Assembly (NCBI GenBank): GCA_020632255.1 | Contig: JACKFX010000001.1 | Span: forward strand, 58,734-122,733 | Direction: 5' to 3' | DNA from: Pseudomonadales bacterium | Lineage (GTDB): Bacteria; Patescibacteriota; Microgenomatia; UBA1400; PJMF01 | Length of the DNA stretch: 64,000 bases | Shown: one piece after another, positions 1,243 through 5,621 of the stretch | Layout of the letters: the number at the start of each line of letters is the position of its first letter | How positions within the stretch are numbered: position 1 is the stretch's first letter | Notes under the pieces: model-generated | Told to the model about the DNA's origin: nothing | Database searches by the model: none | Seen by the model: only the letters and a program-made list of their open reading frames with translations | Translations under genes and position numbers: made by a program

Positions 1243-1325
1243 AAAATGTTATGCGCCATAATAAAAAGCAAAAAATTACAAATTTTTTAATATTTCTGAT
1301 ATTTTTATTCAAATAATTTACACCT

Positions 1326-1892
1326 ATGACTGAGAAAGCTACATACCATGAAGAAGAGCCACCAAAGGCATCATTTGAAACTGGCCAAAAAATAGAATCC
1401 TTAACCGAGGAGGAGAGAAGAGTTCTTTCTGATTACCAAGCATCAGGTGGTAATGTAAACATATATTTAGGCAAAAAAGCTGCAAACCAAACTAGTCATA
1501 TAAAACCAGATTTAGTTGCACGATTCGACCGAGAAGTTGAAGTAATGGATTCTATTTTTCGTCGCATTGACGGCATAGCAAAACCACTAACAGTTCACAG
1601 AGGATTGAGTTTAGATACTCCAAGCCCAGATGAATTTACAAGTCCATGCTATGTAGGAACCACCTTAGATCCTGAAGTAAACGTAGATACAATCACAAGA
1701 AGAACAACCAGAAAAATAGTGCAAATTATCAGACTTCCTCAAGGTCAAAAAGGAATATATCTACCGGACTATATGCCAAATGATGCCTTTGGTGAACGAG
1801 AATTTTTACTTCCAAGAAATACAAAATTCCGCATCATAAAAAGAGAAACTATAAATAATATTCTTGTAGAAGCAGTAGAGATCATTGAATAA
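1326..1892 (+). CDS. mono-ADP-ribosyltransferase toxin-like protein (R-S-E class ART domain)
   Basis: Motifs read from translation: catalytic Arg context TVHRG, S/T-rich STS-like segment FTSPCYVGTT, and an EXE motif followed by the LLPR hallmark (GEREFLLPRNTKF). N-terminal LTEEE…YQASGGNVNIYLGKK resembles the ART NAD-binding N-lobe. Confidence 0.6.
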   Translation: MTEKATYHEEEPPKASFETGQKIESLTEEERRVLSDYQASGGNVNIYLGKKAANQTSHIKPDLVARFDREVEVMDSIFRRIDGIAKPLTVHRGLSLDTPSPDEFTSPCYVGTTLDPEVNVDTITRRTTRKIVQIIRLPQGQKGIYLPDYMPNDAFGEREFLLPRNTKFRIIKRETINNILVEAVEIIE

Positions 1893-2058
1893 AAATATCA
1901 GAAACATATTACCATTTTGAAAGAATGGTAATTGCTTTTCATTACAGCACATAACACGGCATATACGGCTACGGTTTGCTACGCAAACCTCCGCCCATAT
2001 TGCACGGGTGTAGCCTATCGGCTATTATACACCCGTGCAACATCGTATATACCGAAAC

Positions 2059-2140
2059 GTTAGGCAAAATTCGCTTTACTCATTTTGACTAATGGCCGGA
2101 GCTTTTGTTATTCTCGCCCGCTTCGCGAGCTTCGCCTAAC
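2059..2140 (+). repeat. 82-bp GTTAGGC…GCCTAAC palindrome, copy 2
   Basis: Identical to copy 1. Followed by the 38-bp imperfect palindrome gatatactatatccagcc-aa-ggctggacatcgtatatc and preceded by a direct-repeat copy acatcgtatata. Confidence 0.8.
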
Positions 2141-2214
2141 AAAATGATATACTATATCCAGCCAAGGCTGGACATCGTATATCATCCGGCCATTGTGTGA
2201 AATAAATTTTTCTT

Positions 2215-2733
2215 TTGATTATGACAAAAAGAAAGGCAATACCAGCAAAAATAAGGCTAAAAGTCCTACAGAGAGATAATTTTACATGCCAATCTTGTGG
2301 TAAATCGCCAGCATTATACCCAGAGTTGTTAGGAATTGATGCTTTCCCAAAACTAGAGATTGATCACTTTGATCCTCATTCTAAAGGGGGTAGCGATGAA
2401 ATTGACAATTTGCAAACTCTTTGCATCTTCTGCAATCGAGGAAAAGGTAATGACGAGACGCTTAATCGAACTATACAAGACAAAATCAGTACATTGCTAG
2501 ATACAATCAACCCTGAAATACGGAAAGTGATCAATTCAGATGGGAAGGCAAAAATTGTTGCAAATGATACTGATTACCAAGAACTGGTTAGATTAAATAG
2601 TCTATGTAATGCCTTTAGCATTCAAGTAATTCCAAATACAATTTTTGGCTATCAAGCTATGTATAATGCTGGCATATATACGATTAATGACAATCATGCA
2701 GGTAAAGTAAATTTTGTTTTAACTCCAATATAA
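2215..2733 (+). CDS. HNH endonuclease family protein
   Basis: CQSCGKS…EIDHFDPHSKGGSDEIDNLQTLCIFCNRGKGN gives zinc-finger cysteine pairs plus a D-H…N core. Start is TTG at 2215 or ATG at 2221. Confidence 0.7.
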   Translation: MIMTKRKAIPAKIRLKVLQRDNFTCQSCGKSPALYPELLGIDAFPKLEIDHFDPHSKGGSDEIDNLQTLCIFCNRGKGNDETLNRTIQDKISTLLDTINPEIRKVINSDGKAKIVANDTDYQELVRLNSLCNAFSIQVIPNTIFGYQAMYNAGIYTINDNHAGKVNFVLTPI

Positions 2734-2812
2734 AGAAGAAAAATTTACATCACACAACAGCGGGCTAGCCGGTTCGCTTGCTAAAAAAATTATTTTTTTA
2801 AATTATCAATAT

Positions 2813-3037
2813 ATGAAAAAATCAACCATTATAGTCATAATATCAATAGTTTTTGTAACTATAATATTTGGACTATATTTATTTAAGACAAATGCAAGAA
2901 ACACTACTGCGGATATATATCTAGAAAATTGCTTAAAATCAACACTGGCACTCGAAAATGCAGACGTGAACGACACTTTTTTAAGTTGTGAATGGGTGGT
3001 TAGTCAGTATAGAAAATATGGTGAATGGAAGTTTTAA
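2813..3037 (+). CDS. small single-pass membrane protein, unknown function
   Basis: N-terminal hydrophobic helix IIVIISIVFVTIIFGLYLF. No recognisable domain. Confidence 0.4.
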   Translation: MKKSTIIVIISIVFVTIIFGLYLFKTNARNTTADIYLENCLKSTLALENADVNDTFLSCEWVVSQYRKYGEWKF

Positions 3038-3152
3038 AAAATAATATATTTTTAACGCCCACTCACCCAAATTGCCTTCCTTGTGGACAGTGGTAGCCCT
3101 GCGGGCTATTATACCACTGCCACTGCGTCGGCAACTTCGGCCAGCCCGCGCC

Positions 3153-3234
3153 GTTAGGCAAAATTCGCTTTACTCATTTTGACTAATGGCCGGAGCTTTT
3201 GTTATTCTCGCCCGCTTCGCGAGCTTCGCCTAAC
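3153..3234 (+). repeat. 82-bp GTTAGGC…GCCTAAC palindrome, copy 3
   Basis: Identical 82-mer followed by the same 38-bp secondary palindrome. Confidence 0.8.
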
Positions 3235-3363
3235 AAAATGATATACTATATCCAGCCAAGGCTGGACATCGTATATCATCCGGCCATTATACGCCATAAT
3301 AAAAAGCCAATTTGATATAATTTTGGCAATTAATTAATAATTTAAAAATGGAGGTGAGATATT

Positions 3364-3954
3364 ATGACAGAAGTAAAGCAAGGACAACCAGTTGACCAGG
3401 AACAGTCAGTAACAAAAGATTACAGCATGAGGCTTGAGGATTTGAGAAGAAAGATAGTTCGAGGGAACATAGGTGGTGTAGATGTAGTAAGCGCAGTAAA
3501 TGTCAACGAGCTGGTAGAAAATATTAAACCGGGAATTGCTGCAATCGCTAAAGAGTTGCATGAAATTTATGATTTAGCCCCAGCTAATGTACCGTTATGG
3601 AATGGTAGTGATCAAATGATTAGACCTACTCCTCACATTTTTATGCAAAATGTTATTGTGCTAGATATTGCATCATCAATTAGAGACCAAATTGAAATAA
3701 GAGATCTTCAACAACTACCGCTAAGTCCCAAAGGAAGAGGTGCAATTCCCGGTTTAATGTTGCTGTTAGAATTCGACCGTATTAGAACTCAAGACGAAGA
3801 GGATAAGAAGTTTAATAGTACAACTTGGAGGGAACTGCTTGATTTGTATCATCGATCGCTACAGCCTGTTGGAGGACCAGAACAAACAATTGTTACGAAT
3901 CAAGACTTCAAAACAGCAGTTGAAATTACAGGATATGATCCTGTGCATAAATAA
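3364..3954 (+). CDS. hypothetical protein (196 aa), island cargo
   Basis: Good RBS ggaggtgag 7 nt upstream. No recognisable motifs. Confidence 0.5.
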   Translation: MTEVKQGQPVDQEQSVTKDYSMRLEDLRRKIVRGNIGGVDVVSAVNVNELVENIKPGIAAIAKELHEIYDLAPANVPLWNGSDQMIRPTPHIFMQNVIVLDIASSIRDQIEIRDLQQLPLSPKGRGAIPGLMLLLEFDRIRTQDEEDKKFNSTTWRELLDLYHRSLQPVGGPEQTIVTNQDFKTAVEITGYDPVHK

Positions 3955-4153
3955 TATCTCTTGAACATTGCCAAAATAAGAATAAGGATAAATTGGCTTT
4001 TTATTACGTCTCCGCTAACGCTTCGACCACACTGCGCTCTCCTCCCTTCGGTCGTCGGGGCGTATAACACAGCGTATGCGGTTCGGGGCTCGGCTTGCCC
4101 CTCTCCCATATTTTTGCTTCCGTTGGTCGCAAAAACATCGCATATACTGAAAC

Positions 4154-4235
4154 GTTAGGCAAAATTCGCTTTACTCATTTTGACTAATGGCCGGAGCTTT
4201 TGTTATTCTCGCCCGCTTCGCGAGCTTCGCCTAAC
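4154..4235 (+). repeat. 82-bp GTTAGGC…GCCTAAC palindrome, copy 4
   Basis: Identical 82-mer followed by the 38-bp secondary palindrome (one substitution). Confidence 0.8.
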
Positions 4236-4367
4236 AAAATGATATACTATATCCAGCCAAGGCTGGACGTCGTATATCATCCGGCCATTGAGCGAAATAA
4301 TAAAAAGTTTTAAAATTCCTTTTAGGAAATTAAATTTGCAATTTATTTTTTAAATTATTTATATATT

Positions 4368-5342
4368 ATGATTAATCAATTTGAAGATTTTAAAACATCT
4401 AGATGGCCTGAGCATATTTTATCTGAATATAGAGCTATATTGGATCAAGGAATTTTAGAATTGTCTTCTTTAGAAAATGTTAGGCAATTGAAAGACTTAA
4501 GTCTAACTGAACATGAGGAAGAAAGATTGCAATCTGTAGGTAGAATTATCTTGTGGTCAGATGAGAATCGTGGATTTGGTTACTTGAGTTCATCTGTGAA
4601 CCATGATAGAAAAAAGGAACGCATGACAGCAAGATATATAGCTGATTGCTTCCAGGCTAAAGAATCACCTGTCCAACCTATCATAGTCTTAGTCGATGAT
4701 TTTTATCATTTTTGCCCAGGAAATCCTTCATTAGTAAGCAAAACTCAGATTTTTGATGAAATTGCTGTAGAACAGCTACCATCACAAGATTTTGCCATAG
4801 TATTATCAGGATTCACTGAATCAAGAATATTCACTCAATCAGCTCTTAAGCAAGTCCCTTATCAGGATAATGCTGGATTAGAACTAGGTAAAATAACCCA
4901 ATTTGGTAATGAATTATTGTATTTTGCTTCCAATGGGTTACGATCTTTAATCGAAAAAAATAATGGCAATTTAGATGCTGTTCTGAAACAAATGTCTGAA
5001 GCTGGCAATTTTCCAGAAGACGATGTGAGGTTATTATTAGTTACTAGTTTGCTTCTTCAAGATATGCAAAAATGGCAAAATCTGTGGTACGAGAGTAGGA
5101 AAAAGGGTACACCTTTATACATAGTAGCACCGATGAGTTTTCACGATGCAATGAATAGACTTAATTTTGAGTGGGGTCATGGAGGATTAGACTACCGCTA
5201 CAGAGCATCAAATTCTTTAGGTAATCATGACGAGCCGCCACTTGAAAATAATGTGACAACAGAAAACTATTATAACCAGGGACTGTCATCTAATGATTTT
5301 CAAAGAAAGGTGAGTCCAATTTTAGAAAAATTTAAAAAATAA
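4368..5342 (+). CDS. hypothetical protein (324 aa), island cargo
   Basis: Long ORF with no recognisable motifs. Confidence 0.5.
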   Translation: MINQFEDFKTSRWPEHILSEYRAILDQGILELSSLENVRQLKDLSLTEHEEERLQSVGRIILWSDENRGFGYLSSSVNHDRKKERMTARYIADCFQAKESPVQPIIVLVDDFYHFCPGNPSLVSKTQIFDEIAVEQLPSQDFAIVLSGFTESRIFTQSALKQVPYQDNAGLELGKITQFGNELLYFASNGLRSLIEKNNGNLDAVLKQMSEAGNFPEDDVRLLLVTSLLLQDMQKWQNLWYESRKKGTPLYIVAPMSFHDAMNRLNFEWGHGGLDYRYRASNSLGNHDEPPLENNVTTENYYNQGLSSNDFQRKVSPILEKFKK

Positions 5343-5621
5343 ATTGCGAATATGTTTTGTTGTCGCAAAATTAAAACTTTTTATTACATCGCACAACAGC
5401 GTGTATGAAGTTCAAGAAAAGTGCGTTTATAATTTTCAAAGGTTGCACTTTTTCTTTCACCCAAATTTCGCCTCATCTATAATAAAATAATAAGGAGGTC
5501 GGCGAAACTTCTCATACACGCAAACCGTTATATGAAATTATTTATTTTTCTATTGATTGATAAAAAATTTTTGATAGGCTTTTATTAAGAATAAATATGA
5601 TTTATTATGGGGAGAAATAGT

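Follow-up and report, generated by a model that had tools for sequence, protein, structure and literature searches.

A probable integron-like gene-capture platform with self-complementary cassette ends and a simple Xer-like recombinase in a CPR bacterium

The DNA considered here is a stretch of 64,000 nucleotides (nt) from contig JACKFX010000001.1 (assembly GCA_020632255.1) of a bacterium that belongs to the CPR, or candidate phyla radiation (Patescibacteria). We call this whole stretch the window and give all coordinates as positions within it; its G+C content is 38%. Positions 231-5776 are probably an integron-like gene-capture platform, in which the gene of a tyrosine recombinase is followed by a divergent attI-like site and a co-oriented array. 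The array consists of ten cassette units that all point the same way: five that each hold an open reading frame (ORF), four copies of a short unit that we call cassette X, and one terminal remnant (Table 1). An integron-like capture system of this kind, with a simpler Xer-like recombinase, is widespread in ultra-small CPR bacteria, and the related loci with homologous recombinases that were used for comparison carry the labels L001-L083 below.

An earlier note on this DNA had claimed that every cassette ORF is bracketed by its own inverted repeats, built from a shared core plus cassette-specific arms. The repeat pairs it listed for cassettes 1, 2, 4 and 5 were all found in their places. In cassette 1, positions 1247-1271 are inverted at 1932-1956 (25 nt, 84% identity) and 1290-1312 at 1885-1907 (23 nt, 96%). 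The corresponding pairs are 2186-2214 and 2736-2764 in cassette 2 (29 nt, 83%), and 4288-4313 with 5371-5396 (26 nt, 88%) and 4327-4359 with 5326-5358 (33 nt, 85%) in cassette 5. In cassette 4 a direct reading of the sequence pairs 3287-3330 with 3967-4008 plus 4059-4068, the right arm being split by an insert of 50 nt at 4009-4058. For the right end of this cassette CGCTAAC (4014-4020) had been considered and was dropped in favor of GTATAAC at 4062-4068, which matches the left end perfectly.

The possibility that such repeats arise by chance was assessed with the local alignment score of the 5' flank of an ORF against the reverse complement of its own 3' flank. The controls were 1,645 mismatched ORF pairs, whose 99th percentile, a score of 28, served as the threshold. 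The five cassette ORFs of the window score 52, 34, 27, 36 and 56 in order, and the five plus-strand ORFs past the last cassette score 14-18. The claim that every cassette ORF is bracketed by repeats thus holds for four of the five; the ORF at 2813-3037, which the earlier note had skipped, is a weak case that falls just below the threshold. The property is not confined to the window, as 84 of 329 array-strand ORFs in 49 loci with homologous recombinases exceed the 99th percentile, and these are concentrated beside the integrase. When both strands are counted, the ORFs flanked by inverted repeats number 82 on the array strand against 4 on the other. The per-ORF test misses cassettes with several genes. 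One cassette-sized unit beside the attI of L001 appears to be of this type, holding a DNA methylase, an R.HinP1I-like restriction enzyme and a 415-aa protein.

A second approach, anchored ungapped matching of the two ends, gave no gain over reversed-sequence controls at 15 of 20 positions and was enriched only at 17-18 of 20 (31 vs 5 at 18). A reverse-complement control was discarded for this comparison because inverted repeats are symmetric under reverse complement. We also scored ten cassettes of three class 1 integrons (IMP-45, OXA-1, catB3, aac(6'), arr-3, dfrA27, aadA16, dfrA15 and others), which reached 14-27, none of them above 28. The extended arms are real and general in this recombinase family, and they are no property of classical cassettes.

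The repeats start at the crossover itself, which reads G|TT on the left and, as its complement, AA|C on the right. An ORF unit begins TT-N4-G(A/C)AAT... and ends ...ATC-N4-AAC, the two N4 stretches of one unit being complementary, and a whole cassette is laid out as TT-N4-GAAAT-left arm-ORF-right arm-ATC-N4-AAC-a-[L'' stem ... L' stem]-aaac-G. Over their first 16 nt the two ends match each other in 37 cassettes from many loci, save at positions 9 and 10, which are mismatched in 23 and 30 of the 37, and the two arms differ in a constant way, GAAAT on the left standing against GATGT on the reverse-complemented right. The core that had been proposed is real, but is better described as TT-N4-GAAAT(A) on the left against TT-N4-GATGT(A), reverse-complemented, on the right. 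The GTAATAAAAAG stretch that the note had taken for this core is the next one outward in three of the window cassettes, and the repeats do not start there but 6-10 nt further out, at the conserved G|TT and AA|C. Complementarity reaches 15-70 bp past the recombination core on both sides of the ORF. The right-end type, ACATC-N4-AA, is that of box 2 of the attI-like site. Since the inner 11-15 bp of the arms match this box, they are probably the footprint of the recombinase.

The right arms are followed by hairpins. After the AAC of the arm, 31 sites across the loci read N4-AAC-a-[stem of at least 9 nt]...[complementary stem]-(a/g)aac-G|TT-N4-GAAAT. The spacers measure 1 nt on the '' side and 4 nt on the ' side in 20 of the 31 sites, a 1x4 loop, and their difference is 3 nt in 24, which leaves a 3-nt bulge on the ' side. 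Exactly this geometry stands behind 23 of 59 AAC ends anchored by inverted repeats. Among the 6,254 remaining AACs of the arrays the share is 0.85%, so that the enrichment is 46-fold. The stems vary from site to site (for example GCGTGTATG, CGGCATATC, CAGTATATC), yet L'' and L' are complementary within each site, which is covariation. The window hairpins, with the exception of site 4, fold beyond shuffled controls with z-scores of -2.4 to -7.2, and the bottom strand is slightly more stable; on that strand the hairpin of cassette 1 reaches -33.1 kcal/mol (z -7.2). With its R''/R' cores and L''/L' stems, the site behind the right arm is organized like the attC of an integron.

Taking the hairpin out of a cassette site leaves AA-CAAAACG-TT, that is, a 7-nt center like that of attI and of the hairpin-less junction between X1 and cassette 1. 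The folded hairpin is for this reason a mimic of the attI-type core (arm, 7-nt center, arm), in which the 3 surplus bases are bulged on one strand. The earlier note had proposed an attC-like site split by integration with the GTAATAAAAAG core at the center of the palindrome. The first half of this idea holds up well, as each cassette has complementary ends of its own, the boundaries lie at G|TT, and an integron-like recombinase and an attI-like site adjoin. The geometry does not, because the center is the attC-like hairpin, which had been missed, and strands cross over within the stem, at a point some 10 nt inward of that core.

Two other features of these sites were seen. The attC-like loops contain a conserved CACCCA(A/T)ATT immediately 5' of L' (window 1992-2041, 3064-3137, 4106-4138 and 5458-5507, and many loci). 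It is followed by a sub-hairpin bounded by ATT...AAC, whose loop is often GATAAAATAAGGAGG and whose region in hairpin 5 coincides with the promoter-like TTCACC-16-TATAAT. Additionally, a GC-rich stem-loop of about 45-50 nt (…CCTCCCTTCGG…) lies between the right arm and R'' at 4009-4058 of the window, in cassette 3 of L003 and in a cassette shared by L019 and L042 (cassette A), interrupting the inverted repeat on one side only.

At the head of the array, about 45 loci from many lineages have the same arrangement upstream of the recombinase gene: two direct TTCG(T/C)ATAA boxes about 40 nt apart, then AAACGAG|TT. Their sequences part immediately after the GTT. Box 2 (the ACATCGTATAA type) has the form of cassette right ends and, together with the start of a cassette, makes a 9-7-9 palindromic core, TTCGTATAA-AAACGAG-TTATACGAA. 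The same nucleotide is where assemblies stop. Eight independent genome contigs end 0-2 nt after the attI GTT (L012, L020, L025, L028, L031, L033, L062 and L072), and 25 of 80 contigs end within about 320 nt of the integrase start. We explain the stops at the GTT by the behavior of an assembler, which breaks where strains differ from that nucleotide on. Contigs of about 1 kb with an identical integrase had also been considered as evidence of such heterogeneity and were rejected; they break about 30 nt into X, which is explained by the four X repeats.

Movement of cassettes can be followed between loci. Cassette A (1.3 kb) is 88% identical between L019 and L042, and a second one, cassette B, is 86% identical between L042 and L081. 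Both stand at other array positions with other neighbors. On either side their homology breaks off at G|TT, and it takes in the hairpin. To judge from these copies, whole cassettes are mobile between arrays.

The recombinase is intermediate between the integron integrases (IntI) and the Xer proteins. Its top NCBIfam score is 218.3 bits for the integron integrase model TIGR02249, below the cut-off of 265. The archaeal model XerA_Arch is a near miss (215.2 bits against a cut-off of 220), and XerC (185.6 against 335) and XerD (183.4 against 330) score lower. The closest solved relative is VchIntIA, which aligns at residues 11-201 and 245-317 so that about 43 residues (~202-244) are skipped, and IntI1 spends 311 aa covering residues 5-270 of the query, 45 residues more. 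In both alignments the insertion specific to IntI, the I2 helix, is absent from the 270-aa recombinase. More than 7,500 homologs of about 270 aa are found at E <= 1e-20, and the genome relatives in many CPR groups are 58-97% identical. Smyshlyaev et al. 2021 grouped simple Xer-related recombinases of candidate phyla as 'Cand', a subgroup tied to no mobile element (PMC8138268). The present family, which shares both the simple Xer-related type and the source in candidate phyla, probably belongs to this subgroup, but differs in being tied to cassette arrays.

These features can be combined into a mechanism. In a free circular cassette the R' and R'' half-sites and 15-70 further pairs would join into a single uninterrupted stem, tipped by the hairpin. 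As the G|TT lies within this stem, integration there would part its two sides, so that one comes to stand 5' of the ORF and the other 3'. Like an integron integrase, the recombinase would exchange a single strand of the folded site; the covarying stems, the bulge and the slightly more stable bottom strand bear on this indirectly. The outer arms could then have two uses. They may stabilize the AT-rich R-box stem of the free cassette, and in single-stranded array DNA they may pair across the ORF and bring both G|TT crossovers together, which would permit the precise excision of a single cassette. Minimum free energy (MFE) folds of whole cassettes as single-stranded DNA are predicted to pair the arms across the ORF on both strands, with 20-48 pairs (40-45 arm-arm pairs in cassette 1).

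Several points weigh against this interpretation. Recombination activity, the strand used and the role of the outer arms are read from sequence and fold prediction, and the whole-cassette MFE folds are themselves predictions. In integron integrases the I2 helix recognizes the extrahelical bases of folded attC (PMC4792948). As the recombinase is without I2, recombination of a folded strand cannot be assumed for it. The junctions between attI and the first cassette and between X1 and cassette 1 are plain 9-7-9 cores of the double-stranded type, which fit an Xer-type double-stranded reaction equally well, and the junction at 2759-2781 is without a foldable hairpin (z +0.47). Finally, given the platform's position at tRNA genes and the tRNA-end repeats described below, integrating the island as a whole might be the enzyme's primary task.

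The strongest alternative, which we nevertheless consider rather improbable, is built on the double-stranded reaction just mentioned. A single Xer-type recombinase would act on double-stranded dif-like sites beside its own gene, as in the integrative mobile elements exploiting Xer (IMEX). ORF units and hairpin units would be separate modules, each of which entered as a circle carrying a palindromic double-stranded site, and the repeats would be the two half-sites left after crossover in the central region. An enzyme without the IntI insertion that nearly reaches the XerA cut-off (215 vs 220) fits this well, as do the TTCGTATAA-AAACGAG-TTATACGAA core formed by attI box 2 and the cassette start, the hairpin-less junction of X1 and cassette 1, the constant 7 nt of the center between R'' and L'', and half-sites that differ at fixed outer positions as dif arms do. 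The second center is harder to accommodate, since between L' and R' it is about 10 nt long and variable in length, too long for a rigid double-stranded core. The model also does not explain why L'' and L' covary, why ORF and hairpin move jointly between arrays, or why neighboring central regions are non-identical, and its half-sites account for about 11 bp but not for arms of 25-70 bp. A terminus dif would also fit poorly with the genomic positions, with dnaA about 7 kb from one platform, half of the loci beside tRNA genes, and two paralogous copies in one genome.

It is also possible that the arms act at the RNA level, though as an explanation of the repeats we find this unlikely. The arms would pair in the polycistronic transcript, either as RNase III-like processing or stabilizing stems or as hairpins of untranslated regions (UTRs) or terminators, and the link with recombination would be secondary. 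Their placement agrees with such a role. The 3' UTRs, with a median length of 37 nt, are taken up almost entirely by the arms, as is most of the leader. Of the shorter UTR, 82% is matched by the other arm, and in cassette 4 the arms stop before the ribosome-binding site (RBS). Some frames, described below, keep leader, RBS and trailer while the ORF changes, and promoter-like matches occur in X and hairpin 5. However, the repeats begin right at the crossover and include the half-site of the recombinase that attI also has, no T-tract terminators were found in a scan inside the array, and ORF-less cassettes retain their arms. The mismatches are informative as well. The outer arms have few of them, and among the 25 outside the core just 2 are sense-strand G.U pairs, with no bias and no sign of wobble tolerance, which argues for pairing of the arms in DNA rather than in RNA. 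A strand test by mismatch type was tried and rejected, as its excess of bottom-strand wobbles (73 vs 25) came almost wholly from one conserved core position. A role in RNA is possible as an extra function of the arms.

The last alternative, which the earlier note had raised and which can be set aside with little hesitation, is that the ORFs are invertons, flipped one by one by the adjacent recombinase through their flanking repeats; these do hold recombinase half-sites in inverted orientation, but the 82 to 4 bias toward the array strand extends across assemblies, the arm asymmetry is constant, the central regions by the two half-sites are unlike in both length and sequence where double-stranded inversion needs identity, and whole cassettes are transposed between arrays, not inverted.

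Within the integron-like platform, the unit X deserves separate attention. The conserved block between ORFs occurs four times, starting at 1161, 2059, 3153 and 4154. It begins G|TTAGGC after three different upstream hairpins and ends ...GGCCA|TT before three different cassettes, so this 133-nt block is itself an ORF-less cassette, a point that had escaped the earlier note. Its end is A|TT, unlike the usual G|TT, and copies of it precede four of the five ORF cassettes. X was found neither in the 83 loci examined nor in metagenome contigs of the Joint Genome Institute (JGI). Inside it lies a promoter-like TTGACT-18-TATTCT with TG, and X may be a mobile promoter cassette; promoter-like sites in total are not above the expectation from shuffling (25 vs 18.9).

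ORF-less units are seen elsewhere too. In several loci units at attI consist of R', a short arm, a loop, an arm and R'', with a recurring CGCT(C/T)CGCTC loop. Minimal ORF-less cassettes of the form GTT-N4-arm-ATCGCT(C/T)CGCTC-arm-N4-AAC were noticed in L032 (168-198), L013, L024, L060 (3667-3701 and 8281-8315) and L083 (135-199), all in array coordinates. Their CGCTTCGCT motif also caps the leader hairpin of a common pilin-type frame and occurs in X.

The surroundings of an ORF can be conserved while the ORF is not. Cassette 4 and the second cassette of L004 (L004:8925-9745) share the leader from G|TT through the RBS, with 84% column identity and a near-perfect core of about 60 nt, and they share the trailer from just past the stop codon into the hairpin (79%). 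The proteins between these parts are unrelated (20.8 bits over 48 residues). A small screen gave two further frame pairs, L027:4273 with L064:330, whose ORFs have 164 vs 828 aa, and L045:2305 with L063:175 (523 vs 188 aa). Because shared frames enclose unrelated ORFs and ORF-less units exist, the sequences suggest that what persists is the palindromic frame, into which ORFs are set as exchangeable inserts, and this would be a lead on how cassettes come about.

The features of the island are collected in Table 1. Among the cassette products, the ORF at 1326-1892 is ADP-ribosyltransferase toxin-like (Pfam PF03496), and a search against the PHROGs phage families added no information for ORFs 3-5. 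The last unit (5528-5711) is probably a truncated cassette at the island edge; its 5' leader resembles that of the first cassette of L007, L064 and L077.

Table 1. Features of the island at the left end of the window
Feature	Position	Strand	Description
tRNA-Leu, 3' part	1-78	+	truncated by the window start; Rfam tRNA match 1-76; 3' end faces the 3' end of the recombinase gene
Direct repeat 1	166-229	+	64 nt; copy with 100% identity at 5712-5775; closes with the tRNA 3'-end 15-mer CCTCTCGTCGGCAC; left limit of the island
Tyrosine recombinase, 270 aa	234-1046	-	Pfam Phage_integrase and SAM-like domains; intermediate between IntI and Xer
attI-like site	1105-1163	+	box 1 TTCGTATAA 1105-1113; box 2 ATCGTATAA 1146-1154; spacer AAATGA; crossover G1161|T1162
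X1	1162-1248	+	short ORF-less copy of X, 87 nt, without hairpin; joined to cassette 1 via GCCTAA-CAAAATG-TTATGC
Cassette 1	1249-2059	+	R' and left arm 1249-1312; ORF 1326-1892; right arm and R'' 1885-1955; attC-like hairpin to G2059
X2	2060-2192	+	133 nt, no ORF; TTAGGC...GCCTAAC, own hairpin GATATAC...GTATATC, end ...GGCCA|TT; promoter-like TTGACT-18-TATTCT; fold z -4.8
Cassette 2	2193-2780	+	left arm 2193-2214; HNH ORF 2215-2733 (Pfam); right arm and R'' 2734-2758; degenerate junction 2759-2781
Cassette 3	2781-3153	+	small membrane-protein ORF 2813-3037; weak AT-rich arms; R'' TTTTAAC 3050-3056; attC-like hairpin to G3153
X3	3154-3286	+	third copy of X, ORF-less
Cassette 4	3287-4154	+	left arm 3287-3330; ORF 3364-3954, no assigned function; right arm 3967-4008; insert 4009-4058; R'' GGCGTATAAC 4059-4068; attC-like hairpin to G4154
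X4	4155-4287	+	fourth copy of X, ORF-less
Cassette 5	4288-5527	+	left arm 4288-4359; ORF 4368-5342, no assigned function; right arm and R'' 5326-5397; attC-like hairpin to G5527; promoter-like TTCACC-16-TATAAT 5456-5483
Terminal cassette-like segment	5528-5711	+	starts with the consensus TTATATGAAAT; short pilin-like N-terminal ORF reading into repeat 2; no R'' or hairpin
Direct repeat 2	5712-5775	+	right limit of the island; terminator-like hairpin 5781-5801; backbone synteny with L004 from 5797

The two perfect 64-nt direct repeats enclose the recombinase and all ORFs of the array. An Rfam scan of 1-6500 found nothing beyond the tRNA, Rfam containing no attC model. In L004 the intact ortholog of this tRNA is a tRNA-Leu(tag), 3 nt from the integrase stop, and in 24 of 50 related loci the integrase stop is faced, at a distance of 3-630 nt, by the 3' end of a tRNA (Ser, Leu, Ala, Trp) or of a tmRNA. 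At the array end of 18 other loci no distal tRNA-end repeat of at least 14 nt was found. L018 does carry a copy of its tmRNA end, 16 nt long, but it lies on the opposite side, between integrase and tmRNA, and in L004 the tRNA-end repeat is reduced to an 8-nt remnant. From these sequences the platform of recombinase plus array itself looks like a tRNA-targeting island.

The comparison with L004 also gives an indication of how such platforms travel. The tRNA, recombinase and attI of the two loci are 96-98% identical (98% over 216-1178), and the array of L004 is different and shorter at the same chromosomal locus. The homology of the backbone picks up again 21 nt past direct repeat 2, and the genes there (5797-8638) are syntenic but only 69-78% identical. 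This disparity suggests that the platform at the tRNA-Leu locus was recently replaced horizontally. Elsewhere dnaA lies about 7 kb from one platform, and one metagenome-assembled genome has two paralogous platform loci. As to hosts, one scaffold of 1.39 Mb labeled Altiarchaeales archaeon (L068, MCBF01000001.1) has a 60%-identical recombinase with a typical attI; its first cassette is ORF-less, and a run of Ns comes next. This is either cross-domain presence or an error of scaffolding or binning. Other platform contigs (L004, L008, L025, L027, L031 and others) are labeled Pseudomonadales, Gammaproteobacteria, Atribacterota or Limisphaerales, and these are probably errors of the taxonomy labels, as the isolate name HK-STAS-PATE-15 points to Patescibacteria.

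Among known systems, integrons (class 1 and the chromosomal integron of Vibrio cholerae) share with the platform a recombinase gene divergent from attI, co-oriented cassettes that mostly have a single ORF, and a G|TT crossover. Each of their cassettes likewise terminates in an imperfect palindrome that has ...AAC / GTT... cores and L''/L' stems, its first bases complement its own inverse core, and the cargo includes toxin, nuclease and restriction-modification genes. The differences begin with the recombinase, which is without the I2 insertion and below the IntI cut-off. The sites of the platform and its relatives have a 1x4 spacer with a 3-nt bulge on the ' side, whereas classical sites have a symmetric unpaired spacer and extrahelical bases near L'' (PMC5027507). 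The complementarity of 15-70 bp past the core is not present in the ten class 1 cassettes, and promoter-like motifs in many hairpins and in X and a position at tRNA genes set the platform apart as well. As a whole the system would operate in the manner of an integron, with two defining features of integrons missing, I2 and the layout of extrahelical bases and central spacer, and with two-sided palindromic frames added.

Xer/dif systems, IMEX and pdif modules resemble the platform in their small Xer-like recombinase and in inverted arms of about 9-11 bp around a 7-bp center, which the platform has at attI, at the junction of X1 and cassette 1 and between R'' and L''. They also share a core beside the recombinase gene, as in XerS and XerH systems, and modules bracketed by inversely oriented half-sites; Blackwell and Hall reportedly described pdif modules of Acinetobacter plasmids in 2017. 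The platform differs in junctions with a covarying hairpin and an over-long second center, in arms far longer than a half-site, in a position that does not seem terminus-like, and in co-oriented arrays that start at one fixed site. A third relation is to tRNA-targeting islands or tycheposons (bioRxiv 10.1101/2020.12.28.424599), which likewise carry an integrase at the island end by the 3' end of a tRNA. The window island is bounded by tRNA-end repeats as they are, and a further likeness is its integrase module, which has 98% identity between two genomes even though their flanking backbones have only about 70%. However, it is without a replication module, its cargo comes as small hairpin-bearing cassettes at a second, internal site, and in 17 other loci no distal tRNA-end repeat of at least 14 nt was found. 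In the full-text literature we found no report of integron-like arrays in CPR bacteria; the coverage was incomplete, so an earlier description is possible.

These findings touch on two open questions about integrons, the joint origin of folded attC and I2 and the way in which cassettes are made. Escudero et al. 2016 described the first of these as a chicken-egg paradox (PMC4792948), and a platform that is without I2 but has hairpin cassettes bears directly on it. For the second, unrelated ORFs in recurring palindromic frames lead to a testable model for cassette birth, in which ORFs are inserted into pre-existing frames. Putting both together, we tentatively entertain an integron-type system that works without I2, either as a surviving pre-I2 stage or as an independent solution. 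Its cassettes would be built on self-complementary non-coding frames of left arm, right arm and hairpin, which persist, spread as units and receive unrelated ORFs from the RBS to the stop codon, the ORF-less frames with the CGCT(C/T)CGCTC loop being empty acceptors. If this were true, a long-unknown step of cassette genesis would be directly visible at such loci.

There is also a practical side, as the platform breaks metagenome assemblies at a predictable nucleotide, and this could be used to find platforms and to infer the variation of cassettes between strains. For the CPR bacteria, which have tiny genomes and few known routes of gene transfer, the platform would add a dedicated means of gene shuffling that carries toxins, nucleases and restriction systems.

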